A program made the translations under genes and the position numbers. A stretch of 64,000 nt of DNA from a virus, in the IMG/VR virus record IMGVR_UViG_3300045988_162908; one strand, written 5' to 3'. Every line of letters starts with the position of its first letter. Within the stretch, counting starts at the first letter, position 1. Positions 27,821-44,079 of the stretch are shown piece by piece. The notes below the pieces were generated by a model. That model made no database searches, was not told the DNA's origin, and saw only the letters and a list, made by a program, of their open reading frames with translations.

Positions 27821-28012
27821 ATGGCAAAGAAGACAATTAAACAACAGTACGACGAGTTAGCAAAATACGGTGAATGTTTCGAGCAAGAAGGTTATGGAGG
27901 CTTTGCCCTTGTAATCGACGAAAACGGGGAACGTGCCCTATATAAGGTTTGTTATAACAATACGGAGGAACTTTGCGCGCGCTGGCAAAAAAATAAAATA
28001 CACGTGCCCTAA
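27821..28012 (+). CDS. hypothetical small protein (63 aa)
   Basis: Co-oriented ORF, but the only one in the block without motif-1. Confidence 0.4.
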   Translation: MAKKTIKQQYDELAKYGECFEQEGYGGFALVIDENGERALYKVCYNNTEELCARWQKNKIHVP

Positions 28013-28100
28013 AAAAGAAAATAACTGGCCCCGTCCTTATATCACAATTAAGGGAGTGCGCCACTATCTCGACAACTTCATGCGGTGTGCATAAAAGCCC

Positions 28101-28125
28101 GGTACCCTGAACCTTCCAGGGTACC
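28101..28125 (+). terminator. gene-end hairpin with CCAGGGTACC arm
   Basis: ggtaccctg-aaccttc-cagggtacc, a perfect 9-bp stem. Confidence 0.45.
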
Positions 28126-28138
28126 CACAAAATAACTA

Positions 28139-28167
28139 TATTATAGAATTTTTAAAATATTGAGAAA
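28139..28167 (+). promoter_or_regulatory. motif-1 copy
   Basis: tattatagaatttttaaaatattgagaaa|ATG. Confidence 0.7.
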
Positions 28168-28428
28168 ATGAACAATTATAATATTACATTTTCGCGCCGT
28201 TCCAGTACGGCGGCCCTGGTAAGTGTTTTATTTGCCGTGTGTGCCATTCTGTTTGCACGCCTGAATAAAAGTACCTTTGCAGCTATAAAAAGCGCCTGGC
28301 GATGGTTATTTGCGCCTAAAACCTACTTTGCCAGCGATGGCGACGGTGTAACGGTCAACGGGCTTCAATTTATCGGTATTAATCTAATAGCCGCGGCCGT
28401 GTGTGTATTACTGTCTATCTCCTTATAA
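28168..28428 (+). CDS. small membrane protein (86 aa)
   Basis: Motif-1 lies upstream. Two hydrophobic segments. Confidence 0.55.
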   Translation: MNNYNITFSRRSSTAALVSVLFAVCAILFARLNKSTFAAIKSAWRWLFAPKTYFASDGDGVTVNGLQFIGINLIAAAVCVLLSISL

Positions 28429-28456
28429 AGATATTCTTTTTCAAACTTTAAATATC

Positions 28457-28556
28457 AGGGTGCAAAGGTATCCAGGCCAAAACGGCGGATCATTCCCGCC
28501 GGCACCTTCTAATAAGTGATAAAGCCGCTTTTATAGCGGTTGCAAAATATCACAAG
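28457..28556 (+). repeat. structured intergenic element, copy 2 (domains 1 and 2)
   Basis: Domain 1: agggtgc / gcacctt around cggcgg-atcattc-ccgccg. Domain 2: gtgata..gccgct-tttat-agcggt..tatcac. Confidence 0.7.
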
Positions 28557-28570
28557 GAATTAATAAAATA

Positions 28571-28600
28571 TATTATAGAACATTTTAATTTTTAGGCAAT
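28571..28600 (+). promoter_or_regulatory. motif-1 copy
   Basis: tattatagaacattttaatttttaggcaat|ATG. Confidence 0.75.
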
Positions 28601-28819
28601 ATGAAAAAGAAAATTTTCTCATTTGAAATGTACCTTATTATGAACGGTACGTGGACCCTGTTACGTAATTTTCGTTGTGATATAAACGAAAAGAGAAAAC
28701 AAGTAGCATACCTTAAAAACAAGGGTTATGTTTACGACCGAAAAGAAAAAGCCTACTTTTTACGAAATGTAGGCACCGCCTATAATTGCGCCGTGTCAAT
28801 TAAAAGCTATGAGATGTAA
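28601..28819 (+). CDS. hypothetical small protein (72 aa)
   Basis: Motif-1 lies upstream. Confidence 0.55.
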   Translation: MKKKIFSFEMYLIMNGTWTLLRNFRCDINEKRKQVAYLKNKGYVYDRKEKAYFLRNVGTAYNCAVSIKSYEM

Positions 28820-28831
28820 AATATAGTGCTA

Positions 28832-28862
28832 TATTATAGGACGTTTTTAAAAATAGAAAATT
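28832..28862 (+). promoter_or_regulatory. motif-1 copy
   Basis: tattataggacgtttttaaaaatagaaaatt|ATG. Confidence 0.7.
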
Positions 28863-29051
28863 ATGAAAGCAGCATCTTTTATTACATCAAAAAATTATAG
28901 CGGTGAAGACATTTGTCAAATATATTTGGGACGTCGAGCCGCTGAAGAAGGATACCAGAGTATCCAGGAGCTTATTTCAGACTTACCAAACAGGACACCC
29001 AAGGGCAAAAGAAGCGGAATTGGTTTTTGGTCCTTATGTTTTAAGAAATAA
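28863..29051 (+). CDS. hypothetical small protein (62 aa)
   Basis: Motif-1 lies upstream. Preferred over the overlapping ORF 28903..29187, which runs through the structured element. Confidence 0.5.
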   Translation: MKAASFITSKNYSGEDICQIYLGRRAAEEGYQSIQELISDLPNRTPKGKRSGIGFWSLCFKK

Positions 29052-29150
29052 GGTGCAAAGGTTTAAGGCCCACACGGCGGATCATTCCCGCCGGCACCTT
29101 CTAATAAGTGATAAAAGCCCTATTTATAGCGGCTGCAAAATATCACGAAG
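29050..29150 (+). repeat. structured intergenic element, copy 3 (domains 1 and 2)
   Basis: Domain 1: aaggtgc / gcacctt around cggcgg-atcattc-ccgccg. Domain 2: gtgata...tatcac. Near-identical to copy 2. Confidence 0.7.
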
Positions 29151-29163
29151 AATTATTAAACAG

Positions 29164-29191
29164 ATTATAGAACATTTAAATTTTTAGAGTT
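29164..29191 (+). promoter_or_regulatory. motif-1 copy
   Basis: attatagaacatttaaatttttagagtt|ATG. Confidence 0.75.
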
Positions 29192-29578
29192 ATGAAGACT
29201 TTTCATTTTAATTACACGGTGACTCCTTCTGTATTATACGACAAGGAGGGCAACGAAAAAAGTGCGGATTTTTGGATTGATATTAGAAATCAGCACAGCG
29301 AGATCCAGGCGGAAAACCTGAAGGAGGCGTGCCGGGCATTCAGCGAGATTCTGAGCCGTAACTGGTGCATAGATTTGACCAAAAACGGCATAAAAACCGC
29401 TGAAGGTGTGTATAGAGACACCGACAAAGGAGTAGAACAGGTAGGTCTTGTATTCAAGGCGCGCACGGAGATTGAATTTGATTACGCTTATAAAAGACGT
29501 AATATTCGAGTATGGGCATCTATCCGTGAAGAGTTCATTCCCGATTTTGAGAAAGAAGGCTTTAAGGTATCATTATAG
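29192..29578 (+). CDS. hypothetical protein (128 aa)
   Basis: Motif-1 lies upstream. Confidence 0.65.
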   Translation: MKTFHFNYTVTPSVLYDKEGNEKSADFWIDIRNQHSEIQAENLKEACRAFSEILSRNWCIDLTKNGIKTAEGVYRDTDKGVEQVGLVFKARTEIEFDYAYKRRNIRVWASIREEFIPDFEKEGFKVSL

Positions 29579-29599
29579 ACTCTTTAAAATTTTGAGGAT
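29572..29599 (+). promoter_or_regulatory. motif-1 copy (overlaps the upstream stop codon)
   Basis: attatagactctttaaaattttgaggat|ATG. Confidence 0.7.
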
Positions 29600-29887
29600 A
29601 TGAAGAAATTAAAGAAATTAGCTATTTTATTGCGTGCCCTTGGCTTTAAGGTTGAAGTAAGACACGAGCCTATCACTTTTGATGATGGCACCGTAATAGA
29701 AAATATCTTTGCCGCCGTCGATTTAGCGGGCTGTCACTGGGACATCTGGCACGAAGGTGTTACCTTTGAAATGCACTTTTATAGGAATAAGGAGTGTATT
29801 TATGATCAGGTGTACTACTCGTTTCAGCTTGGAGTTATCAAACAGATTTTTATAGACTTCGACAAGTACGAAAAATACGCCTGTTAA
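29600..29887 (+). CDS. hypothetical protein (95 aa)
   Basis: Motif-1 lies upstream. Confidence 0.6.
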   Translation: MKKLKKLAILLRALGFKVEVRHEPITFDDGTVIENIFAAVDLAGCHWDIWHEGVTFEMHFYRNKECIYDQVYYSFQLGVIKQIFIDFDKYEKYAC

Positions 29888-29891
29888 GGCT

Positions 29892-29916
29892 TCCAGGGCA
29901 CTCCTGGAGTCTTTTA
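29892..29916 (+). terminator. gene-end hairpin plus T-run
   Basis: tccagg-gcact-cctgga then gtctttta. Confidence 0.45.
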
Positions 29917-29940
29917 TATAGGATGCAAAGAATATCACTA

Positions 29941-29971
29941 TATTATAGAACAATTTTAATTTTGAGGAATT
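29941..29971 (+). promoter_or_regulatory. motif-1 copy
   Basis: tattatagaacaattttaattttgaggaatt|ATG. Confidence 0.75.
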
Positions 29972-30796
29972 ATGGAAGCAAAGATAGATTTTGAGAATTT
30001 GGAAAAAGAGGCCATCTGGAAAATTGAGGACCGCCTGGGTGATTTAAAAGAAGACTCCGGAGACGTTTTTCTGTGGGCAAGTAATTCTATCCCGGCTACA
30101 AAACCGGAACGTTTTAGCAGCGTGAAAAATGCAAAAGAATACGGAATTTTGAGAAATGAGTCTTACATGCGCCGTGGTATAATGAAACGAGATGAGCCAA
30201 TAGACTATATTATAGGATCGGAAAAAGATTACCAAAAAACCGTGAAGTCTTGGTTCCGTCGCAAGAAAAACGAGATGGTAAGAAAGTACCGCGAACACGT
30301 CGAAAAACTCGTGGACCGCTCAAACAAAGAAATAACAGCGATGAAGGCGTTTAAAGACGTTTGCCGTACCTTCGATGGCAAAGTGATAAATAAGCGCTTT
30401 CTGGACGCTGCAAGGTATGCTACAGGCTTTTCTTGTAGCTTTTATGATGGCTGTCTTGAAATGAACGCTATCAATTCTTACGGAGAATACGCTCCAGGTA
30501 TCACGTTTTATTCTCCTTGTTGTTCTCTGACACAAAAAGCCTGGAAGTGGACGACAAACGACCGTATGGCTGCAGCAGAAGCCGTCGATCTGATAGACGG
30601 GTATATCTTGAACAAAACACGGGATATTGCTAAATACAAAGATAGCATCAAACATTATGCAAAGTACGTGGACCAGGTACGCAAAATCGAGGCTTCTCTT
30701 CATAAGCTGGTAAAAACCGATGTAACGATCAGAGGCTGGGCACGTGAACACGACCTGGAGAAGTACCCACTGTTTGGTCACATCTGGGTATGCTAA
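29972..30796 (+). CDS. hypothetical protein (274 aa)
   Basis: Motif-1 lies upstream. Largest gene of the array. The antisense 30320..30799 is treated as a shadow. Confidence 0.65.
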   Translation: MEAKIDFENLEKEAIWKIEDRLGDLKEDSGDVFLWASNSIPATKPERFSSVKNAKEYGILRNESYMRRGIMKRDEPIDYIIGSEKDYQKTVKSWFRRKKNEMVRKYREHVEKLVDRSNKEITAMKAFKDVCRTFDGKVINKRFLDAARYATGFSCSFYDGCLEMNAINSYGEYAPGITFYSPCCSLTQKAWKWTTNDRMAAAEAVDLIDGYILNKTRDIAKYKDSIKHYAKYVDQVRKIEASLHKLVKTDVTIRGWAREHDLEKYPLFGHIWVC

Positions 30797-30802
30797 CAAA
30801 TA

Positions 30803-30823
30803 GCCCTGAATGCTATTCAGGGC
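30803..30823 (+). terminator. gene-end hairpin
   Basis: gccctgaat-gct-attcagggc, a 9-bp stem. Confidence 0.45.
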
Positions 30824-30852
30824 ACCCTTTATAGAATGAGTGATTTTTTACT

Positions 30853-30883
30853 TATTATAGAACGTTTTTAATATTGAGGAATT
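30853..30883 (+). promoter_or_regulatory. motif-1 copy
   Basis: tattatagaacgtttttaatattgaggaatt|ATG. Confidence 0.75.
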
Positions 30884-31595
30884 ATGAAAGACAATAAATT
30901 GTATGTAGATATTTTGAGCCGACAGGCAAATAAGGATGGCAGACCATACGAAATGGCACTGAGCGATTTCTGTGACTTCCTTCTGGATTTATTCAGCGTC
31001 GAGGCATTCAAGGGCAAAGATGTTGACAGCCTGCAAAACTGGTTTAGTGAGCGTATCAGCAAGAAGCCTGACTTCGGGCTACTGGCTACAAACTGGCTGG
31101 TAGATGTAAGCGTGGCACTTCAGAATGGTACCTGGCTTGATGTGTTTGGCATTCTTTATGAGAACATGTACCTATTACCTGGCAAGGCCTCCAAGACAGG
31201 GCAATTTTTCACGCCTCCTGCCATTTCCGACCTAATAAGTGATATTATAGGCTCGAAGAAAAAAACAGGCTTCCAGCCCTAATATTTCAGGCAAAACGGT
31301 AAATGATTGCGCCGCTGGTAGCGGTCGCCTTCTTCTGTCACACTTTGCTAAAATGAGCAGCCCTGATCCTTCAGTAGGTAGAACATATAAGTATGTTGCC
31401 CAGGATTCAGATCCGCTGGCATGTAAGATGTGCGCCCTGAACATGATGGCGCACGGTATGAATGGCGTGGTAATCTGCCAGGATACCTTGGCAATGAGTA
31501 CACCATCGGCGGTGTATTACGTCAACGAAGTGAAATATCCATTTAATACGCCTTATTATAGCGTGCGTGTAGTATCAGGGGATCCAGCAAAATAG
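30884..31595 (+). pseudogene. frameshifted, C-terminally truncated N6-adenine methyltransferase-like gene
   Basis: ORF 30884..31282 carries GQFFTPPAISDLISDIIG (MTase motif X). After the A7 tract at 31259-31265, the +1 frame continues ..VNDCAAGSGRLLL (motif I) and ..ACKMCALNMMAHGMNGVVICQDTL. No NPPY/F motif before the stop at 31595. Confidence 0.6.
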
Positions 31596-31622
31596 GATTC
31601 CCTGGCAATAAAGAAAATAACA

Positions 31623-31642
31623 TATTATAGAACAGATAGAAA
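31623..31642 (+). promoter_or_regulatory. motif-1 copy (short form)
   Basis: tattatagaacagatagaaa|ATG. Confidence 0.55.
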
Positions 31643-31999
31643 ATGAAGAAATCATCAGTTATATATAATTTCGCTATCTCGCAGCATCAGGGTAAAATCC
31701 TGCTGACTGCCCAGGAATACCCCTGGAGTGTGCTCCAGGTAATCACTTTCGAGCCACAATTTTTCGACAAGGTGGTGGCGCTTTGCAAGCGCCGCGGTAT
31801 GGTAGCTACCCACGACAAGGATCGCTCCTTCTGCATCATCCATCTTGGCAGTGGAGATCAGAACGGCAAATATCCAGATAGGCATATCAATACCGATACG
31901 CCGGCAGCTATCGACAAGTATCTGGAGGCATTGAAAGATGCGATGGCGCAAGCAGTGGTTTGGTATTTTACGAATATTATAGAACGTGTGAAAAATTAG
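31643..31999 (+). CDS. hypothetical protein (118 aa)
   Basis: Short motif-1 lies upstream. Confidence 0.6.
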   Translation: MKKSSVIYNFAISQHQGKILLTAQEYPWSVLQVITFEPQFFDKVVALCKRRGMVATHDKDRSFCIIHLGSGDQNGKYPDRHINTDTPAAIDKYLEALKDAMAQAVVWYFTNIIERVKN

Positions 32000-32004
32000 A
32001 AATT
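31975..32004 (+). promoter_or_regulatory. motif-1 copy (inside the 3' end of the upstream gene)
   Basis: tattatagaacgtgtgaaaaattagaaatt|ATG. Confidence 0.7.
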
Positions 32005-32265
32005 ATGATAGAATATTTGTTAGATATATATACGATCCGCAGATATACAAATGGGAAGGTAACATGTGAGAAAATCTCGAAAGTACTTAAAGAAAGTACG
32101 GTAAAACTTGCAAAACGAGCTTGCAAAAACGTTGGTTATAAGTACATCGGACGTTACAAGGATACATACGGTAACTATTATGCCAAGTATGAACGCAAGG
32201 ATGAAAAGTTATCTAATTCCGAATGTGAAGTTTACTTCAGGCAGATATTCACAAAATTAAAGTAA
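32005..32265 (+). CDS. hypothetical protein (86 aa)
   Basis: The ATG at 32005 follows motif-1; the tracked 31960 start is probably too far upstream. Confidence 0.55.
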   Translation: MIEYLLDIYTIRRYTNGKVTCEKISKVLKESTVKLAKRACKNVGYKYIGRYKDTYGNYYAKYERKDEKLSNSECEVYFRQIFTKLK

Positions 32266-32295
32266 TATAGAATCAATAAAAAATTAGAAAATCGT
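32263..32295 (+). promoter_or_regulatory. motif-1 copy (divergent)
   Basis: taatatagaatcaataaaaaattagaaaatcgt|ATG. Confidence 0.55.
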
Positions 32296-32595
32296 ATGAA
32301 GCATATTTATATACTGAGCACTTGCGACAACTGGAAATCCCGCGGCTCAATGATTAGATATTACGTCGGATCATCCGACAAGGCTGGCACCCGCCGACTG
32401 CTGGCAGCTATCACAAAAGGTATTAGGGATCGCGTTTTCCGTTGGGCTACGAATGGCGAGAAGATTCCGGTACTGGAACAGATAGAAGACTTTCAACACG
32501 ATGTGAAGTTTGCCGGTGCTACAGTTGCGTATGAAATCCAGAGTAAACTGGAAGGCGGCTCGCTGGAGCTCGTAGAGTTTAACAGTTATCAGTAG
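32296..32595 (+). CDS. hypothetical protein (99 aa)
   Basis: Divergent motif-1 lies upstream. Confidence 0.6.
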   Translation: MKHIYILSTCDNWKSRGSMIRYYVGSSDKAGTRRLLAAITKGIRDRVFRWATNGEKIPVLEQIEDFQHDVKFAGATVAYEIQSKLEGGSLELVEFNSYQ

Positions 32596-32625
32596 TATTG
32601 TAGAATCATAAAAAAATTAGAAATT
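32596..32625 (+). promoter_or_regulatory. motif-1 copy (divergent)
   Basis: tattgtagaatcataaaaaaattagaaatt|ATG. Confidence 0.6.
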
Positions 32626-32886
32626 ATGGCAAAGTTAACAAAGAAAGATAAGGAGTTTTTAAAGAAAATCGGCTATCTCGAAGAGGATTTCAATCAGATA
32701 GAAAAAGCCAATTACAAGTATTACACCAAAGATGATCAGAGAATCAGCGAGGAGGAAGCTCTTAAAAAGTTAGGTAGAGATCGCTGGCTGTCTGGTATAG
32801 GTAGAGCCTGTTTTCATGCTTCATCTGTAAGAGATTACAAGCGTGGTTCAGGATATGTATATATAAATAGTGATACTTTCCAATAA
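32626..32886 (+). CDS. hypothetical protein (86 aa)
   Basis: Motif-1 lies upstream. Confidence 0.6.
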   Translation: MAKLTKKDKEFLKKIGYLEEDFNQIEKANYKYYTKDDQRISEEEALKKLGRDRWLSGIGRACFHASSVRDYKRGSGYVYINSDTFQ

Positions 32887-32904
32887 ATAATATCACGATC
32901 ATCA

Positions 32905-32934
32905 TATTATAACAACATTAAAAAATCAGAAATT
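32905..32934 (+). promoter_or_regulatory. motif-1 copy (divergent)
   Basis: tattataacaacattaaaaaatcagaaatt|ATG. Confidence 0.55.
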
Positions 32935-33477
32935 ATGGAATCAAAGAATAATAATAAGAACGGTATGAACGTTATAGAGAATATAGAAAACGAAGTGAAG
33001 GTAACAGAAGAGAGCCGCAAGGCATACGGACGACCATCTGTTAACGAGGAAAAGGGCTGGAAGCTGGATCACGTTATCCCTTTTGACTTCTACCACAACG
33101 CATATATAAAGAGCCGCATGGGTATTGATGAACTCGTAGAGATAGTGCTGCAGGAGTGTAATATCAGCGCGGATGATACCTGTTCCTGGGCAAAAGATAT
33201 TCGCACACTCATTAAGTACGCCATCGAGCATTTCGATGAGCGGATGGAGGAGGACGAGGAAGACCCGGATGGGGAAAATGAACTCTTATCAGGGTGCTGG
33301 ATAGGCGATGCTATCACCCTGCGTGAAGAGGCGTACGAGTGCGCAGAAATGCACCGCAGCCACACACCAGAAGAGAGACAGGAGTTTCTTGAATATTGCT
33401 GGGGATTTGCATCTAAGGCTGCGAGCCGCATCGACCGCATGATGAAGATATTTGAGCCTTCAGACACGAAGCAGTAA
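32935..33477 (+). CDS. hypothetical acidic protein (180 aa)
   Basis: Motif-1 lies upstream. Contains the run MEEDEEDPDGENE. Confidence 0.6.
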   Translation: MESKNNNKNGMNVIENIENEVKVTEESRKAYGRPSVNEEKGWKLDHVIPFDFYHNAYIKSRMGIDELVEIVLQECNISADDTCSWAKDIRTLIKYAIEHFDERMEEDEEDPDGENELLSGCWIGDAITLREEAYECAEMHRSHTPEERQEFLEYCWGFASKAASRIDRMMKIFEPSDTKQ

Positions 33478-33492
33478 CCCACCATCCCATAC

Positions 33493-33517
33493 AGGGGAAG
33501 TCTGAAAGCCTTCCCCT
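33493..33517 (+). terminator. hairpin at the end of the motif-1 array
   Basis: aggggaag-N9-cttcccct, an 8-bp stem with no T-run. Followed by about 250 nt of GC-rich hairpin-prone spacer. Confidence 0.4.
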
Positions 33518-33819
33518 ACCCCGTCCGGCAGACCGGCAAGCGTGGAGCGACACCACGGCGAGGTGCATTATTTCTTTGAAATAACTTTGAAATTTTAAAT
33601 GTTTTTTGCGGAAGCGTCCGCACTTGTTTTCACGCTGTCTGCGGTCCGTGAGGATAGCAGCGGCATTTTTTCCCATCGCTGCCACGGCTGGCACCATCTA
33701 TTGAAGATGTGAGGATCGACACCTCAGAGCGAACAATGACTGACAAATAAGGTATAGAGTGCTGAAAACGTGATAAAACGTTAAAAATACATCTAAAATA
33801 GTATTTTATGTGTATTTTA

Positions 33820-33851
33820 TTTGGTAGTTTCAGAAATTATCCGTACCTTTG
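33820..33851 (+). promoter_or_regulatory. canonical Bacteroidota promoter (-33 TTTG / -7 TACCTTTG)
   Basis: TTTG 33820-33823, 20 nt spacer, TACCTTTG 33844-33851. Heads the motif-2 gene set. Confidence 0.65.
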
Positions 33852-33897
33852 CATCAGATAAAACAAGAAGATAATATATAATACTAATAATCATTTT

Positions 33898-33932
33898 TAG
33901 CCCTAAGCGCATCACGGTTAAGCGCAAGTAAT
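33898..33932 (+). promoter_or_regulatory. motif-2 copy (AGCCCTAAGCGC-ATCACGGTTAA-GCGC hairpin before the ATG)
   Basis: tagccctaagcgcatcacggttaagcgcaagtaat|ATG. Confidence 0.75.
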
Positions 33933-34298
33933 ATGAAAACAATTTCCTTTAATTTAAATTTTGTAGAAATCCAATCCTTGCTTACATCTATTATCAATAT
34001 AGATAAGTTAATGGGTGTGCATGATTGTTCAGATCAAGACTATCCACGAACACCGCAGGAGGTAAAGATTGCGGTTGCCATCGAATTGAAGGCGATGGGC
34101 GTGTTAGCCTACGACCTCGACAATATCACCGACAAGACCCGCGATACCTTGGAGAATCGAGGATATACGGGAGAGTGGCAGGACGAGTACGAATCCTTCT
34201 GGCTGAAGGGTCAATATGTATGGGTGCGAGTAAGAATGCTCTACAAAACGGACGGAACGCCTGTTATAGCTTTGGAGGCAAAAGCCAATAATCAATAA
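33933..34298 (+). CDS. hypothetical protein (121 aa)
   Basis: Motif-2 lies upstream. Confidence 0.65.
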   Translation: MKTISFNLNFVEIQSLLTSIINIDKLMGVHDCSDQDYPRTPQEVKIAVAIELKAMGVLAYDLDNITDKTRDTLENRGYTGEWQDEYESFWLKGQYVWVRVRMLYKTDGTPVIALEAKANNQ

Positions 34299-34311
34299 TA
34301 CATTTATAATT

Positions 34312-34346
34312 TAGCCCTAAGCGCATCACGGTTAAGCGCAAACAAT
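34312..34346 (+). promoter_or_regulatory. motif-2 copy
   Basis: tagccctaagcgcatcacggttaagcgcaaacaat|ATG. Confidence 0.75.
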
Positions 34347-35054
34347 ATGGGAACATATAGAAGAGTATTTATTCCTTCCAAATTTTCATCTGTTGAGAAT
34401 GCTAACAAAAAGCATAAGAGTAGAGTTTCAGCGTGCAGAAAGAACGGTGTAGTAAACGTTTGTGTCTTCGATGGTACCGCATCACTCCTGGGTAAGCTGA
34501 AGGCTTTCGTCGAAGAAAAGAAGGTAGATTATCATACCTTCGGTGATAACTACAACGGCTACGGCTACCAGGATCACTATCACGATTATTACCTGAATAC
34601 AAAGGACGGAAAAGCATTCATCGAAATGCTTGACGGGAAAAAGAAGGTCGTAAAGAAGGCGAAAACCTGGGAGGACGTTCGCGACGCATGGGCTCGCTCG
34701 CTGGTTAGAAAATCAGAGAATGCAGTTACCTTCGAAGAGGCGCAGCAGATGGCAGAGGAAAAGGTAGATTATAAGAACGACAGAATATCTGCGATGATCT
34801 CGCGCCAGTCTGAGCGAGGCGACAGCGTAAAGCGCGGCAAGCTCATTGCAAAGATGGAGCGTGAAAATCCTTTCCGTCCTATCCGAGATTACGACCACGC
34901 CCTGGCTATCATTGCAGCAAGCAAACGTCACAATAATACGGCCTACGATAGTCTCCTGAACGAGGCGCACGATATGGAGCGCTATGGCGATATTGAGCCA
35001 GGAACCGCAAAAGAGTGGGCACGTGAACAGATAAAGAGAACTAAGCAGTTATAA
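34347..35054 (+). CDS. hypothetical protein (235 aa)
   Basis: Motif-2 lies upstream. Confidence 0.65.
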   Translation: MGTYRRVFIPSKFSSVENANKKHKSRVSACRKNGVVNVCVFDGTASLLGKLKAFVEEKKVDYHTFGDNYNGYGYQDHYHDYYLNTKDGKAFIEMLDGKKKVVKKAKTWEDVRDAWARSLVRKSENAVTFEEAQQMAEEKVDYKNDRISAMISRQSERGDSVKRGKLIAKMERENPFRPIRDYDHALAIIAASKRHNNTAYDSLLNEAHDMERYGDIEPGTAKEWAREQIKRTKQL

Positions 35055-35061
35055 TTATTAC

Positions 35062-35097
35062 TAAGCCCTAAGCGCATCACGGTTAAGCGCAAATAAT
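35062..35097 (+). promoter_or_regulatory. motif-2 copy
   Basis: taagccctaagcgcatcacggttaagcgcaaataat|ATG. Confidence 0.75.
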
Positions 35098-35688
35098 ATG
35101 AAGAAGTTTTTTGTATATTTCGACAAGAAAGTTATTATTGACTCAGCAGAAAAAGCCGAGGAGTTTATTAACAGCCTGACTGACAAGAACGAGCCTGACG
35201 GCAGAAAGTTGGAGGTTAACGACAACGTTCATTCCCTTCTGAAGAAGATTTATCAGGACGAACAGGCGGGCAGAAAATTGCAGACTACAGGCTGTAGCCC
35301 ATCATCCTTCATCTATTGCTATCCTGCCCTTGCTGATACTCCAGAGGAGTGCGAGAAGGCTATCATAGCAAAAGAGGCAGCAGACCGCAAGCACAAGCAG
35401 GATGAGGAGATCCAGGAGAAGCAGCGTATCGCCCGTGAAATCAACGAGCGCCGCAAGGAACTGGCTGCGATGCCGAAAGGTTTCTTTACCGTCTGTCTTT
35501 GTGCAACCGTCAATTTTTCATATAAATATTATGAGTACGTAGGCTATGCCGAGAATGGCGAGGAGGCATATAAAATGGCAGTAGCGAAGCTACAGAAAGA
35601 TTTCGGTACCCACCTCTGGGATTACGATAACATCCTGGATGCAGAAATCATTCCTCGCCTTCTTGGTGATGAAGTTTATTCGTTATAG
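35098..35688 (+). CDS. hypothetical protein (196 aa)
   Basis: Motif-2 lies upstream. Confidence 0.65.
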   Translation: MKKFFVYFDKKVIIDSAEKAEEFINSLTDKNEPDGRKLEVNDNVHSLLKKIYQDEQAGRKLQTTGCSPSSFIYCYPALADTPEECEKAIIAKEAADRKHKQDEEIQEKQRIAREINERRKELAAMPKGFFTVCLCATVNFSYKYYEYVGYAENGEEAYKMAVAKLQKDFGTHLWDYDNILDAEIIPRLLGDEVYSL

Positions 35689-35723
35689 CATCGGATTTTT
35701 ATTACTGGTTTATAGATTATTTT

Positions 35724-35756
35724 CAGCCCTACGCATCACGGTCAAGCGGAACTAAT
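35724..35756 (+). promoter_or_regulatory. motif-2 copy (variant stem)
   Basis: cagccctacgcatcacggtcaagcggaactaat|ATG. Confidence 0.65.
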
Positions 35757-36353
35757 ATGGAAAGAAACGACATAGTAGTATTGGAGAATCTTCAGCAAGA
35801 AGATGATCAACCAAGATACCTTGTAGTATTAGCTAAGGAAATAGAAAATTATGCCGCAGACGGAAGCAGCTACGATTATTCCTTAGAGAACGGCGAGAGT
35901 GAGTGTGAGCATGATATGATGAAGGCTATAGAGAAGAAGTTCGGAATTAACACTGCCGAGCTGTCTCTATGTGGAGAAGACAACGAACTTGAAGCTTGTA
36001 TCGCTTCTGAAATTAGCGATGAGTTGCTTGCCGAGATAAACACTTTCGCTAAAAAATGGCGAGAGGAAAATGAATGGTTTGATAATCCGCTCTATTGGAA
36101 CTATTTTGATGGCTCAAACTGGAAGTCAGAGCTGTTACATAGTGAAGTAGAAGGTGTGAATGACAACCGTCAGTATGATTTGCTCGATAGCAATGGCGAG
36201 ACCGCAAAGGACGTTATTGCGGCATACGACAGAGCCGAGGACGTTCCAAGACAATGGGAAAACGGATATTCTACCTTCATTGATGAAGAAACCGGGTATG
36301 AGGTTAGATTCTCTCAATGGTACGGACACGCAAGTATGGCAGACGTTTATTAA
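35757..36353 (+). CDS. hypothetical strongly acidic protein (198 aa)
   Basis: Motif-2 lies upstream. D/E-rich throughout. Confidence 0.65.
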   Translation: MERNDIVVLENLQQEDDQPRYLVVLAKEIENYAADGSSYDYSLENGESECEHDMMKAIEKKFGINTAELSLCGEDNELEACIASEISDELLAEINTFAKKWREENEWFDNPLYWNYFDGSNWKSELLHSEVEGVNDNRQYDLLDSNGETAKDVIAAYDRAEDVPRQWENGYSTFIDEETGYEVRFSQWYGHASMADVY

Positions 36354-36365
36354 AATCATTATTAT

Positions 36366-36397
36366 CAGCCCTCGACATCACGGTTAAGTCAATAGGT
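36366..36397 (+). promoter_or_regulatory. motif-2 copy (variant stem)
   Basis: cagccctcgacatcacggttaagtcaataggt|ATG. Confidence 0.6.
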
Positions 36398-36985
36398 ATG
36401 GAGGTTTTTAATCTTGTTATAGAAGGGCAAAATAACCTTAAATGTTTATTAAGCGTAAAATTGCCCGTTGATGATCCTAAATATTCAAAGTTTGGGAAAG
36501 ACTTTTTTGATGATGAGTTTATAAATGATGAAGTCTTTAAATATTTCGATCGTTATTTTATGTATCTTTCAGATGAGTTTACTGCCTGGTATCAGCAAAA
36601 CGAAGAAGAAGCATGGTTTGACTTACGCTTAGGCGATGATGGCAAAATGTATGCGGTAGCAGGCGACTCAGAAGGTATTAAGTTCTTAAATGAGGTAATC
36701 TATATAACATTAGATTATCTCGATCATGAGATAAACTTTATGGGTAGCGAGAAAGATAGTAGTTATTGGTTTAGTTTTTGGATTGACCCAGATGGTGGCA
36801 TCCTAAAAGCTGCTGACCATTGTCGTTCTTTTGACTTTTATGACGACTTAAATGATGATGACGCATATTATCCGATGACAGAATATAGCTTCAAGGCAGC
36901 TCTCGATGATTTGATTGCACATAGCGACGACTATCAGAATCCTATCGAGGAGGAGGACGAAGAAGAGGAGGAAGAGGAAGAATAA
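36398..36985 (+). CDS. hypothetical acidic protein with poly-Glu tail (195 aa)
   Basis: The ATG after motif-2 is preferred to the tracked 36317 start. Ends IEEEDEEEEEEEE. Confidence 0.6.
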   Translation: MEVFNLVIEGQNNLKCLLSVKLPVDDPKYSKFGKDFFDDEFINDEVFKYFDRYFMYLSDEFTAWYQQNEEEAWFDLRLGDDGKMYAVAGDSEGIKFLNEVIYITLDYLDHEINFMGSEKDSSYWFSFWIDPDGGILKAADHCRSFDFYDDLNDDDAYYPMTEYSFKAALDDLIAHSDDYQNPIEEEDEEEEEEEE

Positions 36986-37157
36986 AAAAGCCCCGACCTA
37001 AGCCGGGGCACTGCGAGCCTTCTGGCTCGAATCTACTATAGTAGAAATTTGGCTCTTTAAGAGCGTTTGAATCCACAGACTTTTGAAAGTCTGACCGTCA
37101 ACGGAAGTTTTATTTTTCTTTCTATTCCATAAAGGTACGATTAAAAATCTTCCGAAG
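36986..37157 (-). ncRNA. candidate minus-strand multi-hairpin sRNA
   Basis: Minus-strand -7 box at 37164-37171. Six short hairpins lie in 36990-37104. gccccg-N8-cggggc is followed by a T-run only on the minus strand. No ORF. Confidence 0.35.
36990..37029. terminator. two adjacent hairpins after the poly-Glu gene
   Basis: gccccg..cggggc (36990-37009) and cgagcc-ttct-ggctcg (37014-37029). Confidence 0.55.
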
Positions 37158-37163
37158 ACGGTG

Positions 37164-37171
37164 CAAATTTA
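37164..37171 (-). promoter_or_regulatory. -7 box TAAATTTG on the minus strand
   Basis: caaattta on the + strand. Points toward the hairpin cluster. Confidence 0.35.
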
Positions 37172-37231
37172 AGAAATAAAACAATACGGTGTATCAATTT
37201 ACACGAATTATTAATATTAATTAAGATATTT

Positions 37232-37263
37232 CAGCCCTACCGCAGCACGGCGAAGCGGATTTT
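37232..37263 (+). promoter_or_regulatory. motif-2 copy (compensated stem CCGC/GCGG)
   Basis: cagccctaccgcagcacggcgaagcggatttt|ATG. Confidence 0.6.
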
Positions 37264-37737
37264 ATGGAGGATATGAAAAATCAGGCATCATCAACCGCCA
37301 CGAAAGATAGTATCAGCATCGCTCCCCGTGATGTGCTCCAGTGTTACGGCCTATTGGAGGCTCACCTGGATAATTTGAAGCCTGGCGAGTATTCCGTCTG
37401 CATCAATTACAAGAAAAAGGGTGTTGTAGAGCTGCGCAGGAACCCACGTCCTGCTGATCACCTGAACGTATTGGAGAAGGTAACGAAGGAGGAGAAGAAT
37501 ACCAAGGCAGCCCTGCATCGTTTTGCTGTCGAGGTTCGTAAGGCGTACCAGTCTGGTATCACCATCATCGGCAAGACTCATGCCCTGAAAAGTTTCGGAA
37601 AACGTATCGTAGATGCAGCGCTATGTATTAAGGAAGCCAACAACCAGTATTATTCCTGCGCTGCTCCTCGTCAGTACTACGATAAGAATGCGCTGGTATA
37701 TATGAAGCTGGAGCAGATAGAGAATGAAGATAAATAA
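37264..37737 (+). CDS. hypothetical protein (157 aa)
   Basis: Motif-2 variant lies upstream. Confidence 0.6.
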   Translation: MEDMKNQASSTATKDSISIAPRDVLQCYGLLEAHLDNLKPGEYSVCINYKKKGVVELRRNPRPADHLNVLEKVTKEEKNTKAALHRFAVEVRKAYQSGITIIGKTHALKSFGKRIVDAALCIKEANNQYYSCAAPRQYYDKNALVYMKLEQIENEDK

Positions 37738-40398: not shown

Positions 40399-40454
40399 GT
40401 AAAGGTAAAAAGGTAAAAGAGTAAAAAGGTAAAAAGAGCATTCTTGCTTTTACC
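40399..40454 (+). repeat. GGTAAAAA-family array A6 with AGAGCATTCTTGCT core
   Basis: gtaaaggtaaaaaggtaaaagagtaaaaaggtaaaaagagcattcttgcttttacc. Confidence 0.85.
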
Positions 40455-40502
40455 GAGGATAAAGCGTGCGGATATGCTATTATGGAATTGCATATTCGCA
40501 CG

Positions 40503-40592
40503 TTTCCATTATACCATATTACCATAATCAAAGATTTCCATAACAACAGATTTCCATAATTCAACGTTCATGCAAGAGTATCATTCCATAAA
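40503..40592 (+). repeat. TTCCATAA direct repeats (centromere-like)
   Basis: gatttccataa at 40533-40543 and 40549-40559. Related copies at 40503-40513 and 40582-40592. Confidence 0.6.
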
Positions 40593-40633
40593 CCCACAAA
40601 CACACAAACGTGCATATATTTATGCGTTTATGG

Positions 40634-40673
40634 ATTTATGTATTTGTTGATTTCAATATACAAATACATAAAT
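40634..40673. repeat. 13-bp perfect inverted repeat
   Basis: atttatgtatttg (40634-40646) and caaatacataaat (40661-40673). Confidence 0.8.
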
Positions 40674-40838
40674 CAACGTAGAAACATACACACTCATACA
40701 TATAGAAATACATTCATACACCAACGAAGAAATAAACACATTAAGCAATAAAAGAATGAATAAATACACTAATACATATACAAATGAACTAATAAATGAA
40801 GAAATTTACGCATAAAAGCATTAAATATTTTAAATTTG

Positions 40839-40870
40839 TTTGGCGGTTTAAATTTAATTTCTTAAATTTG
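40839..40870 (+). promoter_or_regulatory. canonical Bacteroidota promoter upstream of parA
   Basis: TTTG 40839-40842, 20 nt spacer, TAAATTTG 40863-40870. acacaaacgtgcat occurs on both sides (40602-40615 and 40898-40911). Confidence 0.6.
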
Positions 40871-41034
40871 CAGTCATAAAAGCACAAAAACATAAAAACA
40901 CAAACGTGCATTTGTATATTTGTGTATTCATGCACTTATGTGTATGCAGATTAGTGGATGTGTGTATTCGTGTATTGTTTCCTGCATTGTCAGGCTAAAG
41001 AGAAGATAATAATAAATAACCAAAAATATAAGTT

Positions 41035-41910
41035 ATGGCAGAAACAAGATTGAAAGAAATCCTCGCCTTCGTAAATCACAAGGGAGGAGTTGGTAAGACA
41101 ACAACAGTTCAGAGTTTGGCAACAGGTCTTCGTCGTTACGGCAAAGGTCATTTCGGTTTGGGTAAAGATGGCAAGGAGCGCAAGCCTCGCATCCTGCTAA
41201 TTGACCTTGACCCCCAGTCAAGTCTCTCCTTCCTCTTTGGATGGAGTGAGGCAGAGAATGCCGGGCAGCCTACCGTATATGATGCGATGATACAGCAGTC
41301 TCGTTTGCCTGTCTATCAGGTAAGAGAGGGCATATATCTCGCTCCTGCATCTTACAGATTGATCAACATCGAGCCTTTCCTCAACCAGATGCCGGTACCA
41401 CGCAAGGCTTTGTTTAAGCTATTCAGTAAGCCGATGACGGAAGTTCGAGGCGACGAATTGACAACGGAAGGAGTTTCATCTATCCTGGAGGCTTTCGATT
41501 ACGTTCTGATAGACTGCCCCCCAGCGTTATCTCTGCTTACGCATAATGCCCTATCGGTTGCATCGGGCGTGGTAATACCTATCCAGCTCGAAATGCTGGC
41601 AACAAAAGGTATTGCTGAAATTCTGAATGCGGTGCAGGAAACTCGTGAAGACTTGAATCCTGATATTGATATTCGCGGTTTGTTCATGGTAATGAGCAAT
41701 GATCAGACAAGAGCCACTAAGCAGTTTAAGGAGTATCTGGGCAATAAGTTTGATGACTATATGTTTGATTCATACACTCGTCGAGATACGAAGATGGTGG
41801 AGGCACAAGCCCTCAATCAGGATATATTCTCTTATTCGCCTTATTGCAGGGTAGGACAAGACTATGAGAATTTTACGAAAGAGATATTGGCCAGTATGCC
41901 GAAAGATTAA
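41035..41910 (+). CDS. parA: ParA-family partition ATPase
   Basis: Deviant Walker A NHKGGVGKTTT. 291 aa. Has ..LIDCPPAL.. and the overall ParA/Soj layout. Confidence 0.9.
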   Translation: MAETRLKEILAFVNHKGGVGKTTTVQSLATGLRRYGKGHFGLGKDGKERKPRILLIDLDPQSSLSFLFGWSEAENAGQPTVYDAMIQQSRLPVYQVREGIYLAPASYRLINIEPFLNQMPVPRKALFKLFSKPMTEVRGDELTTEGVSSILEAFDYVLIDCPPALSLLTHNALSVASGVVIPIQLEMLATKGIAEILNAVQETREDLNPDIDIRGLFMVMSNDQTRATKQFKEYLGNKFDDYMFDSYTRRDTKMVEAQALNQDIFSYSPYCRVGQDYENFTKEILASMPKD

Positions 41911-41958: not shown

Positions 41959-42366
41959 ATGGCAAGACAAGCATCGAATAATTTGAATAAGTTTAAAGGA
42001 CTGGAAGACTCTCCAGCCATCCAAGGTATAGAAAGAATTTATGAGGCTAACGAGGAAGCTCACCAAAAGCGAGTTGCCGAAGCTTTGGAACAACAGCAGA
42101 ACGGACAGGGTACCGCAGAGACGGACACTATGTCACAGACTGATGCACCTTCGCACTCTCCGGTCCCTCCTGTATCATCTGCCCCTATTTCTACTCCCGA
42201 ACCTGCTCCAGCGAAAAAAACTGGCAAGAAGACTCAGAACGGCATCACTATCTATGTGCCGATGAACTACTACATGCAGATATTACAGATGAAGATGGAG
42301 ACGGGTGTTCCTATTAAGGATATTGCCCTGCAAGCTGTCATCGAGTACCTGAATAGACATAAATAA
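41959..42366 (+). CDS. ribbon-helix-helix centromere-binding protein (ParG/CopG-like)
   Basis: Disordered P/S/T-rich N-terminus. C-terminal GITIYVPMNYYMQILQMKMETGVPIKDIALQAVIEYLNRH fits strand-helix-helix. Directly follows parA. Confidence 0.6.
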   Translation: MARQASNNLNKFKGLEDSPAIQGIERIYEANEEAHQKRVAEALEQQQNGQGTAETDTMSQTDAPSHSPVPPVSSAPISTPEPAPAKKTGKKTQNGITIYVPMNYYMQILQMKMETGVPIKDIALQAVIEYLNRHK

Positions 42367-42400
42367 AGGTAAAAGGGCAAAAGAGTAAAAAGGCTTTTGC
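42365..42400 (+). repeat. GGTAAAAA-family array A7
   Basis: aaaggtaaaagggcaaaagagtaaaaaggcttttgc. Confidence 0.75.
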
Positions 42401-42550: not shown

Positions 42551-42647
42551 AAAAATGAAAACTTTAAATAGAAAATTATAAGATTATAGATATTATATAT
42601 ATTAGGAAAATCTTAATAGTTTGGTTTTCAGACACTTACAAAGTTAC
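42551..42647. other. AT-rich stretch (candidate DNA-unwinding element)
   Basis: aaaaatgaaaactttaaatagaaaattataagattatagatattatatatattagg... lies between the inverted iteron and the iteron array. Confidence 0.5.
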
Positions 42648-42779
42648 TGGTAAACGAAAAGTCAGATTGTGGTAAACGAAAAGTCAGATTGTGGTAAATG
42701 AAAAGTCAGATTGTGGTAAACGAAAAGTCAGATTGTGGTAAACGAAAAGTCAGATTGTGGTAAACGAAAAGTCAGATTT
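42648..42779 (+). repeat. six tandem 22-bp iterons (origin of replication)
   Basis: tggtaaacgaaaagtcagattg x6, head to tail with no spacers (copy 3 has c->t). Ends 3 nt before the rep ATG. Confidence 0.9.
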
Positions 42780-42782
42780 GAT

Positions 42783-44075
42783 ATGATTGATGATAATGAA
42801 AACAAGGGTTTAGCCTGGATAAATACTCCTTTTTCACTCACGAAACTGGATAGACAATACTCTCTTTTTCAGCAAAATGTGTTGATGATAACAAGCACGC
42901 ACCTACAGAAGTTTGTAGATGAGTACTTTTTAGAGAAAAGGCAGTTGGGCGATGCTCGTTCTGATTTTCTTTTTGAGCAAGGCGTGGACCATGCTGTGAT
43001 GAATATCCCGCCTATTAAGATAGACATCCATGATTTCATTACTTGCGAGAATATGAGCTATCAGAAGTTGAGATCGGAGCTAAAGACAAGCATTCTCGAT
43101 ATGACGGTGAAGAGTACGCTGCCCGATGGTAGCGATGAGTTTGCTCATATATTCAGCCGCATGAGTATTCCGTCATCGAAGAACGGATATACGACTAAGG
43201 ACGGAAAGAAGGTGAACCGCATATTGGGATATATCACGCTTGAGATTGATCCGAAACTTTCTAAGCGGGTGTTTGATATGGGACAGGGGTATATTCACCA
43301 TATATCTATGATAGCTAAGTTTGCTAAGAATGTGAATACCCCTCGTGTCTATATCTATCTTTTGCGACAGATAGGATTGAGCAGGAGTATGGATATAGCC
43401 GTACCCTTCCTGGAGCTGAAATCTTATCTTGGTTTAGTGGAACTTGATTGTAATAAGAAAGAAATCTTAAAGAATGAATCTGGAGAGCCTGTTATGAACA
43501 AATATCCTAAATTTTCTCAGTTTAGAAAGCAAGTTCTTGATGTGGTATGCAGAGATTTGCAGAGAATGGAAAAGCTATCCCAGACAGATATTGTGTTTGA
43601 CGAATTGAAAGATGAGGATATTATCTATAAATCGGGTAAACGGAAAGGTGATCCGGACTTCATCAGATTTCGCGTGAAGCGCACAGTAGTAGGTGAGAAT
43701 CATTTATCTAAGGATAAAAATACCGATATTGCCGCTACTCTGAATGAGCGATACAAGCAGAACAGCGTACAGAAGACCGGGAAACTGGTAGAGGGTGATA
43801 TATTCGCCCATGTGCATCAGCCTACGGAAAGCAAGATTATAACCGAGAGCGGACAGGGTACCGACAAGTGGAAGGCTTTCTGTAAGCTCATTATAGGCGA
43901 CGCTGAAAAATCACTGGTTTCCCGCATTTCCTTTGTCGGTATGAAGAACGACAGGTTCTGCGTGGAGTGCAGCGATGAGGACTTTGATATGCTTCGAAAG
44001 TTGGGCATCGAGGAAAAAGCTAAGGAGTTCTTTGACTGCAAAGGTTCTTTTGCACCAGTATTCTACCGAGGGTAG
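42783..44075 (+). CDS. plasmid-type replication initiator (Rep_3/RepB-like guess)
   Basis: The ATG at 42783 lies just after the iterons; the tracked GTG start 42735 is inside them. N-terminal ..AWINTPFSLTKLDRQYSLFQQNVLMITSTHL resembles iteron-binding initiators. The position is the strongest evidence. Confidence 0.6.
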   Translation: MIDDNENKGLAWINTPFSLTKLDRQYSLFQQNVLMITSTHLQKFVDEYFLEKRQLGDARSDFLFEQGVDHAVMNIPPIKIDIHDFITCENMSYQKLRSELKTSILDMTVKSTLPDGSDEFAHIFSRMSIPSSKNGYTTKDGKKVNRILGYITLEIDPKLSKRVFDMGQGYIHHISMIAKFAKNVNTPRVYIYLLRQIGLSRSMDIAVPFLELKSYLGLVELDCNKKEILKNESGEPVMNKYPKFSQFRKQVLDVVCRDLQRMEKLSQTDIVFDELKDEDIIYKSGKRKGDPDFIRFRVKRTVVGENHLSKDKNTDIAATLNERYKQNSVQKTGKLVEGDIFAHVHQPTESKIITESGQGTDKWKAFCKLIIGDAEKSLVSRISFVGMKNDRFCVECSDEDFDMLRKLGIEEKAKEFFDCKGSFAPVFYRG

Positions 44076-44079
44076 TCCT

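Follow-up and report, generated by a model that had tools for sequence, protein, structure and literature searches.

Why should six consecutive genes of one virus each begin a few nucleotides behind the same short hairpin? The question is raised by the plus strand of a 64,000-nucleotide (nt) stretch of DNA, the IMG/VR virus record IMGVR_UViG_3300045988_162908, which is referred to here in its full length as the window. An earlier note, made from the sequence, had described hairpin copies in front of the ATGs at 33933, 34347, 35098, 35757, 36398 and 37264, and this description is borne out by the sequence and the list of open reading frames (ORFs). In this study, we found that the hairpin is maintained by selection in many viruses and that it bounds shuffled gene cassettes. 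As to its function, we tentatively favour a cis-acting leader module for translation initiation that would work through a conserved, probably host-encoded, partner and have a positive or permissive role. The six copies are the following.

Copy 1, 33899-33925, plus strand: AGCCCU (33899-33904), AA, GCGC (33907-33910), loop AUCACGGUUAA (33911-33921), GCGC (33922-33925); then 7 nt and the ATG at 33933; located by regular expression and covariance model.
Copy 2, 34313-34339, plus strand: same sequence as copy 1; ATG at 34347; the preceding stop codon ends at 34298.
Copy 3, 35064-35090, plus strand: same sequence as copy 1; ATG at 35098.
Copy 4, 35725-35748, plus strand: AGCCCU-A-CGC-AUCACGGUCAA-GCG; ATG at 35757; 38.5 bits with the covariance model.
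Copy 5, 36367-36390, plus strand: AGCCCU-C-GAC-AUCACGGUUAA-GUC; ATG at 36398; 43.8 bits with the covariance model.
Copy 6, 37233-37258, plus strand: AGCCCU-A-CCGC-AGCACGGCGAA-GCGG; ATG at 37264; 17.9 bits with the covariance model.

Each copy consists of AGCCCU, a spacer of 1-3 nt, a stem arm of 3-4 nt, a loop of the form A-N-CACGG-N-N-AA and the complementary arm. The stems read as claimed, GCGC/GCGC in copies 1-3, CGC/GCG in copy 4, GAC/GUC in copy 5 and CCGC/GCGG in copy 6. The conserved loop core is likewise present, with CACGG in all six, and the gap to the ATG measures 5-8 nt (7, 7, 7, 8, 7 and 5 nt from the 3' end of the stem in copies 1 to 6). The regular expression AGCCCT-N(3-9)-CACGG has exactly six matches in the window, on the plus strand only, whereas shuffled windows average 0.11 matches and none of 100 gets to six. 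Moreover, when a covariance model derived from the copies of other genomes was applied to the window, it recovered the same six, and its next match was noise (E > 2). The GAC/GUC variant of copy 5 is the commonest among relatives, and copy 6 is placed after a 247-nt non-coding gap containing a candidate non-coding RNA (ncRNA) on the minus strand.

The earlier note had also proposed that the stem changes are compensated. Judged by the window itself the evidence is thin, as its stems amount to four distinct sequences; in relatives it is strong. An exact-pattern scan of IMG/VR revealed the motif in at least 120 contigs, mostly of 30-167 kb and mainly from one large metagenome set. With a looser regular expression, those loci yielded 254 copies, and an ATG stands at the right distance behind more than 90% of them. 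The loci were seeded with patterns containing AGCCCT and CACGG, and secondary copies within the loci were found independently. The covariation test was based on a MAFFT alignment of 101 distinct copies. The three inner stem pairs stay paired in 87-90% of these copies, the unpaired remainder being mostly 10-nt loops offset by one alignment column. Covariation is strong: one pair occurs as CG (51), GC (30) and AU (4), the next as GC (53), AU (23) and CG (10), and the innermost as CG (85) and UA (5). Cells changed on both sides numbered 89 against 33.5 expected, and the covariation score was 0.50 against 0.17 in shuffles; none of 500 shuffles matched either value. With the 3' partner slid by 1-3 columns, the score did not exceed 0.06. 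The stem pairs ranked first, fifth and seventh in an unbiased mutual-information scan from -40 to +3, and the other pairs among the top seven join neighbouring or non-partner stem columns. Beyond the stem, no signal stood out in this interval; in a putative pseudoknot between AGCCCU and the GG(U) of the loop, both partners are invariant.

Outside the stem, AGCCCU and CACGG hardly vary. AGCCCU was kept in 213 of 216 copies found from the loop, stem and ATG alone, and one-base variants of CACGG (UACGG, CGCGG, CAUGG, CUCGG) make up about 10 of the roughly 240 true copies found by AGCCCT and ATG alone. The whole element measures 24-27 nt, with a spacer of 1-3 nt, a stem of 3-4 bp and a loop of 10-11 nt. 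Of the stems, 187 have 3 bp and 51 have 4 bp; none longer was seen. Single-sequence folds of the six leader segments of the window were not better than shuffles (energy z-scores from -0.5 to +1.2), and the hairpin alone is thermodynamically marginal, worth a few kcal/mol. Altogether, these data show that the hairpin is selected, yet weak, and that it is accompanied by near-invariant unpaired bases.

Is the element read in DNA or in RNA? The set of copies begins behind a promoter.

Promoter, 33820-33851, plus strand: TTTG (33820-33823), a 20-nt spacer and TACCTTTG (33844-33851), as read from the sequence.

The earlier note had called this a consensus host promoter, which holds for the Bacteroidota sigma-A consensus (TTTG at -33 and TAnnTTTG at -7; PMC7366714) but not for that of sigma-70. 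Similar boxes occur in the window at 24129, 26009, 40838 and 46783 (repeat family D20). No terminator-like site was found on the plus strand between 33.9 and 36.98 kb, so copies 1-5 look like parts of one operon with the motif before every cistron, and the promoter appears to drive it. Across the loci, a TAnnTTTG box lies within 150 nt upstream of 49 of 139 first-in-array copies (35%), in 40 cases at 14-49 nt, against 6 of 131 inner copies (4.6%) and a background of 8.8%. Clear cases of a promoter followed by the motif are the window and loci L121, L135, L138, L126 and L132. Inner copies have the previous stop codon at a median of 13 nt upstream. Because first copies lie 14-49 nt downstream of a Bacteroidota -7 box, the motif would be a transcribed leader RNA and not a promoter. 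The host RNA polymerase would thus transcribe it from Bacteroidota-type promoters in early accessory operons, as the first gene's 5' untranslated region (UTR) and as intercistronic RNA for the later ones. With its covariation, its upstream promoters and its fixed spacing to the ATG, the element has the appearance of a generic cis-regulatory 5'-UTR hairpin.

These observations leave little room for a function in DNA, either as a promoter for a phage RNA polymerase (N4-type hairpin or T7-type) or as an attC-like recombinase site. Such a function would suit the strand-specific position upstream of each gene, the covarying stem, which recalls N4 early promoters, the location at cassette junctions and an integrase-like family near 48 loci. 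N4-type promoters have a 5-7 bp stem and a 3-nt loop, come with a virion RNA polymerase and need no host promoter. An element of this type is very unlikely given the 3-4 bp stem and the 11-nt loop, and because no RNA polymerase or sigma factor was detected among the window genes; first copies, moreover, stand behind host -7 boxes. A stem and loop of these sizes are very unlikely to extrude from duplex DNA, and many carriers appear temperate, with integrase-like genes nearby, one being a microvirus. Integron attC sites are imperfect palindromes of 57-141 nt with R''/L''-L'/R' boxes (GTTRRRY), are found beside an IntI integrase and have no fixed distance to an ATG, whereas the element has 24-27 nt, lacks GTTRRRY and keeps a spacing of 7 +/- 1 nt. 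We therefore consider a DNA-level element highly improbable, and a protein site in duplex DNA is ruled out by the covarying stem together with the inferred transcription by the host polymerase.

In which viruses and hosts is the element found? The window has the appearance of a Bacteroidales phage or phage-plasmid, of the tailed type according to its gene matches, and the host group is the gut, Prevotella-type one. A genome scan, on which the host assignment rests and which used one (the commonest) stem variant, gave matches in Segatella copri, several Prevotella, Leyella stercorea, Prevotellamassilia timonensis, Phocaeicola oris and Bacteroidales metagenome-assembled genomes. A handful of matching short contigs had been assigned to Bacillota or Melainabacteria, probably through mis-binning. 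Where checked, the chromosomal surroundings resembled a prophage, with small ORFs in arrays and with DUF5675 and YopX domains; five copies occur at the S. copri HDE04 locus, which shows synteny to the window around copy 6. Among GenBank phages, the motif is confined to two records, MT836516 and the microvirus MT135448, and no match was found in PLSDB plasmids. A near-identical match to the 12-kb region was not found among GenBank phages. Rfam 15 gave no match at gathering score over the whole window, and five weak matches at E <= 10 on 33500-37600, none of them on the motif (plus strand). Searches of the literature by exact sequence and by keyword yielded no description of the element.

The microvirus deserves a closer look. 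MT135448 is a genuine member of its group, with VP4 homologues in 3,050 Microviridae records. In this genome (MT135448.1, pig gut; locus L121), an insert at 1880-2165 between the VP2 and peptidase genes comprises a TACCTTTG promoter box, the motif with an AAC/GUU stem and an ORF of 72 amino acids (aa). Neither the closest microvirus relative, MG945328, nor three other microviruses have a detectable motif, and the insert is missing there; a scan of IMG/VR for relatives of the microvirus replication protein (Rep/VP4) found none. Apparently, the insert is a cassette that passed between tailed phages and the microvirus, in one direction or the other.

At the start codon itself, the placement is strict. 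The stem ends 6-8 nt ahead of the ATG in 213 of 254 copies, and the invariant AA of the loop falls at -12/-11, counting the A of the ATG as 0. A occupies -3 in 61% of copies and -6 in 62%, and T occupies -1 in 79%. In Flavobacterium johnsoniae, A at -3, -6, -12 and -13 has been measured as a positive determinant of initiation (PMC6847099). The module extends from -8 to about -31, where a Shine-Dalgarno (SD) helix and its upstream flank would sit, in a phylum whose ribosomes work without SD pairing, the anti-SD being sequestered by bS21, bS18 and bS6 (PMC7797042). The element itself was rejected as an SD sequence. The 3' strand of its stem lies at -8 to -10, with SD spacing and an A-rich spacer after it that recalls the Kozak-like, A-rich TIR (translation initiation region) of Bacteroidota (PMC7797042, PMC6847099), but this strand varies (GUC, GCG, GGC, AGC and others) and has no antisense match to the 16S 3' end (CCUCC; Escherichia coli rRNA as a proxy), and the anti-SD is sequestered anyway. 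Since its sequence varies, the stem cannot pair with a fixed rRNA sequence.

From this position within the 30S binding region, the leader module that we favour would be a cis-acting element of translation initiation. Its weak hairpin and invariant single-stranded bases would offer a conserved trans-acting partner a sequence-specific site to dock on. This partner would most probably come from the host, either as the 30S platform or as an RNA-binding protein. Each promoter-less cassette gene would thereby get its own initiation signal in a host clade without SD pairing. A host partner is favoured because the element is near-identical in viruses that otherwise share little, and because no cognate protein family is found near the arrays. 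In 141 loci, co-occurrence within 1-15 kb of the arrays gave no candidate for such a family; one family, integrase-like and present in 48 loci, was the only one to exceed 20 loci. A positive or permissive role is suggested by the spacer, which is built as a good Bacteroidota TIR, and by the stem, which is kept short. A more specific and rather doubtful version is that the hairpin acts as a virus-borne, SD-independent ribosome-recruitment element, similar to an internal ribosome entry site, for Bacteroidota ribosomes. The helix would take the place of the SD-anti-SD helix and the invariant bases would dock on the 30S platform, in the bS21/bS18/bS6 region or on S1, and viruses of Prevotellaceae would trade the element along with anti-host gene cassettes.

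Several points speak against a leader of this kind. In Bacteroidota, translation is normally reduced by secondary structure in the TIR (PMC6847099). The core and late genes of this phage, where a general enhancer might be expected, lack the motif. With E. coli rRNA as a proxy, neither the 16S 3' tail nor any meaningful rRNA site was complementary to the motif, so recognition by the ribosome would have to be based on shape or on protein. In this proxy, the only perfect antisense 6-mer of AGCCCU is at 16S 1219, off the mRNA path, with about 0.4 expected by chance, and a 5-nt identity of the loop AUCAC to 16S 1531-1535 was regarded as non-significant. In addition, the microvirus represents a single acquisition, and an unused repressor operator would be harmless there, which would fit a phage-encoded repressor too.

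Could the hairpin be the operator of such a repressor, as the earlier note had mainly proposed? A middle or late RNA-binding protein of the phage would then bind the hairpin and AGCCCU, block the 30S subunit and shut off the entire early accessory regulon at once, in the manner of T4 RegA. A conserved-loop hairpin within the ribosome-binding region is the classic layout for this, several copies per genome would coordinate the control, and the motif is confined to one temporal or functional gene class, the neighbouring operon having a different pre-ATG motif. T4 RegA and gp43 operators are comparable short elements in the ribosome-binding region with conserved loop bases, and RegA controls many early mRNAs together (PMC3014915). 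However, RegA sites are AU-rich, unstructured and overlap the AUG, while the present motif is GC-rich, structured and upstream of -8, and it lacks the GGAG of RegB targets, so that it was rejected as either of these. Phage operators such as those of RegA, gp43 and MS2 are private to one lineage and its own protein, whereas this motif is shared by unrelated viruses of one host clade. Near-invariance across very different viruses would require the same protein everywhere, yet the cassettes move between genomes, and no regulator family co-occurs with the arrays. The microvirus, moreover, carries the motif without room for a regulator, which is a weak point, as an unused operator is neutral. We judge a phage-encoded operator unlikely, although by no means far-fetched.

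Processing of the RNA has to be weighed as well. T7 early transcripts carry intercistronic RNase III sites. By analogy with these, with T4 RegB sites and with Cas6-type hairpin cleavage, a host or phage endoribonuclease would cut the early transcript at the motif into monocistronic mRNAs with a defined short leader or a protective hairpin, or the site would stabilise them; a processing site had also been named in the earlier note. A copy in every intercistronic gap of an operon without internal promoters or terminators agrees with this, as do the invariant single-stranded bases beside a short hairpin, suited to a sequence-specific nuclease, and the fixed distance to the AUG, which would set the leader length. 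RNase III sites and those of T4 RegB resemble the motif in placing one site between early cistrons transcribed by the host RNA polymerase (for RegB, PMC3014915). Unlike them, the motif has no long duplex, its stem being far too short for RNase III, and no GGAG, and it also stands ahead of the first cistron, right behind the promoter, where there is nothing to separate. The A-rich spacer and the AA at -12/-11 further argue that the ribosome reads an intact region. A processing or stabilising site is, in our opinion, distinctly unlikely. Both the operator and the processing site are nonetheless compatible with all observations.

How did the same leader reach so many genes? Homology between the window (33.6-38.6 kb) and all fetched loci comes in blocks that begin 0-13 nt from the start of a motif, or end inside a copy or within about 16 nt after it. 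In the case of loci L041 and L031, homology is limited to 35725-36395, which spans cassette 4, its own motif and the next one. Block ends fall within the six 61-nt motif zones in 33 of 85 cases, against 7.3% expected (p = 3e-16). These results show that the motif marks mosaic junctions and bounds shuffled gene cassettes. A matching pattern is known from the PeSL (promoter-early stem-loop) mobile regulatory cassettes of T4-type phages (PMC2839356, PMC4122927). PeSLs, too, are short repeated stem-loop motifs between small ORFan genes of early hyperplastic regions, occur across diverse phages and coincide with the junctions of insertions, deletions and replacements, as the present motif does (PMC2839356, PMC4122927). 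They differ in that each PeSL unites an early sigma-70 promoter and a stem-loop of terminator type; in the present arrays, a promoter is restricted to first copies, and the hairpin has 3-4 bp, a conserved 11-nt loop, no T run and a fixed position 7 nt from the AUG. As the same module stands ahead of every cassette in many viruses, it would supply the homology for cassette exchange, and a PeSL-like junction pattern would explain how a microvirus could gain a unit of promoter, motif and ORF.

It is therefore pertinent to ask whether exchange is all that the element serves. A recombination scar or homology module kept for cassette exchange and devoid of RNA function, as partly proposed for PeSL motifs, would account for the mosaic junctions and for the cassette acquired by the microvirus. 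It leaves unexplained the compensatory stem changes, the tight spacing to the ATG and the strict strand orientation, and upkeep by homology would favour identical stems, not covarying ones. Recombination alone is thus a very unlikely explanation.

Other known elements were also compared. MS2/R17 coat-protein operator hairpins include the AUG and a bulged A, and operators of the MS2/PP7 type have a bulged purine and a loop of 4-6 nt and come with a levivirus-type coat protein; this type was rejected because the AUG lies 5-8 nt outside the stem, no bulge is present, the loop has 10-11 nt and the window is tailed-phage-like. In CsrA/RsmA sites, a short hairpin that overlaps the ribosome-binding site presents an invariant GGA in its loop; here CACGG is followed mostly by U, or by A or C, and GGA occurs in a minority only, so that this class was rejected too. 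Lambda nut consists of boxA and the boxB hairpin, the 5' arm of which happens to read GCCCU. It resembles the present element as a linear conserved block followed by a short conserved-loop hairpin in early transcripts. It differs in that AGCCCU has no AGGGC partner here, the 11-nt loop is not a GNRA-like pentaloop and there is one copy per gene, not per operon. Against a riboswitch speak the lack of an Rfam match and the 86 unrelated families downstream, which do not suggest a metabolite sensor. To our knowledge, nothing beyond CACGG recalls the CRISPR repeats of Prevotella Cas12a, Cas13b or type I-C systems, and the fixed spacing to the ATG argues against a CRISPR-repeat decoy. By sequence and predicted structure, the element would belong to none of these families and resembles an operator or TIR element combined with a PeSL boundary.

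The candidate ncRNA ahead of copy 6 raises the question of an antisense partner. This putative structured RNA of about 170 nt (36985-37171, minus strand) is convergent to the end of the motif operon. Its -7 box lies at 37171-37164 (TAAATTTG), its intrinsic terminator, a strong one at 37009-36990, is followed by a T run, and it also contains several hairpins. Of 141 loci, 20 have a version that is 80-96% identical along about 190 nt, and 7 more retain a 47-nt core; five predicted pairs show compensatory changes, and Rfam gave no match. Base pairing between this RNA and the motif was rejected, as the duplex energy of five of the six copies is within 1.7 standard deviations of shuffles. Copy 6 gives a lower value (-28.4 against -20.8 in shuffles, standard deviation 3.0). 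Every such pairing uses the terminator stem, and the complementarity is not convincing.

What do the cassettes encode? The genes behind the six copies are these, with their isoelectric points (pI).

Cassette gene 1, 33933-34298, plus strand: 121 aa, pI 4.8, without family match.
Cassette gene 2, 34347-35054, plus strand: 235 aa, pI 9.4, without family match.
Cassette gene 3, 35098-35688, plus strand: 196 aa, pI 5.2, without family match.
Cassette gene 4, 35757-36353, plus strand: 198 aa, pI 4.1, without family match.
Cassette gene 5, 36398-36985, plus strand: 195 aa from the motif-supported ATG, pI 4.05, with a poly-Glu tail.
Cassette gene 6, 37264-37737, plus strand: 157 aa, pI 9.1, without family match.

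The six proteins had no usable match in Pfam, PHROGs or PDB sequences. Gene 5 belongs to the commonest motif-driven family, present in 24 loci; its longest ORF begins at 36317, overlapping gene 4, and the position of the motif argues for a start at 36398. The earlier note had spoken of a regulon that includes very acidic proteins. This describes genes 4 and 5 (pI about 4.1), whereas genes 2 and 6 are basic (pI 9.4 and 9.1). Across the loci, the downstream ORFs (n = 246, in 86 families) have a median of about 100 aa and a maximum of 350 aa, and the encoded proteins have a median pI of 4.68, compared with 7.72 among the remaining ORFs of those loci; a pI below 5 is found in 53% and 19%, respectively. 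In the window, the cassette genes lie about 10 kb downstream of a helix-turn-helix (HTH) gene, at the head of a long plus-strand block running into replication genes. From these features, the genes preceded by the motif would be early accessory genes of the host-takeover or anti-defence type.

Three properties make the element unusual: different virus families of one host clade have it in common, it lies at the SD position in a phylum without SD pairing, and it doubles as a shuffling module. The choice of start codons in Bacteroidota is only partly understood, and a 25-nt element at the SD position offers a mutable handle on it. If read by the ribosome or a host protein, the element would be a new initiation signal; otherwise, it would be the operator of a widespread regulator. 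For annotation, the motif predicts true start codons and would flag early accessory, probably anti-host, cassettes of Prevotella and Segatella phages that are otherwise dark matter. From an evolutionary perspective, it points to a route by which cassettes could spread between unrelated viruses of one host clade, tailed phages and microviruses included, in either direction. As genetic tools for Segatella and Prevotella are few, the element could also serve as a portable expression part.

Does the neighbouring operon carry the same signal? The claim that the motif defines a gene class distinct from that operon agrees with our data, since another pre-ATG motif, motif-1, is found there. About 14 copies of it lie on the plus strand at 26431-32940, one ahead of each small gene, with the layout (A)TATTATAGAAC, 13-15 AT-rich nt, (T)AGRAATT, ATG. 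Motif-1 could be a phage-specific promoter or another class of leader. At position 1296 on the minus strand of locus L091, we observed a hybrid leader in which AGCCCT is directly followed by a motif-1 sequence: AGCCCTATTATAGAACACATAAAATTTTGAGAAATTATG. CCCT precedes several motif-1 copies of the window. AGCCCU may thus be a separable module.

As for the rest of the window, its genes include tail proteins, a reverse transcriptase of a diversity-generating retroelement (DGR), a sliding clamp, a ParA ATPase, a beta-ketoacyl-synthase-like gene and a DEDD exonuclease, as well as the HTH gene mentioned above.

Cro/C1-type HTH gene, 23426-24013, minus strand: profile match.

The beta-ketoacyl-synthase-like gene (6441-7679) lies amid virion and tail genes and matches the Pfam ketoacyl-synt N (E = 7e-24) and C (E = 2e-18) profiles, which is unusual within a phage structural module. 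The DGR-type reverse transcriptase (18286-19452; PHROG 1423, E = 3e-76) is about 700 nt downstream of a 933-aa tail-like protein (14756-17557), and the two probably form a DGR that targets a receptor-binding protein.

Repeats are abundant as well. At 42626-42800, a 22-nt unit (TGGTAAACGAAAAGTCAGATTG) is directly repeated six or seven times, extending into the beginning of a 446-aa ORF; this array adjoins the ParA-type ATPase gene (41035-41910) and has an iteron-like layout. The combination suggests plasmid-style replication and partition, and hence a phage-plasmid lifestyle. Upstream of parA, clustered 8-nt repeats (CACAAAC and CATAAAC units) and inverted copies surround the promoter at 40838 (40579-40943, family D9) and may represent a centromere-like or operator array. 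Operon boundaries carry arrays of three to five units of the 8-nt sequence GGTAAAAA (families D1, D2, D4 and D11); inverted copies (repeated TTTTTACC) often come next, with a short GC hairpin in the centre. These arrays, which may be bidirectional terminators or protein-binding arrays, were located by repeat search.

GGTAAAAA arrays: 2764-2824, 6361-6429, 21389-21561, 22425-22499, 40400-40460, 42364-42393, 44071-44264 and 47319-47478.

Finally, two tandem repeats lie within coding sequences: a 60-nt unit in three copies at 23225-23404, inside the ORF at 22851-23405 (family D13), and a 21-nt unit in four copies, TTTCGGTACGGATATTGCCGT, at 23488-23592, inside the minus-strand HTH gene (family D14).

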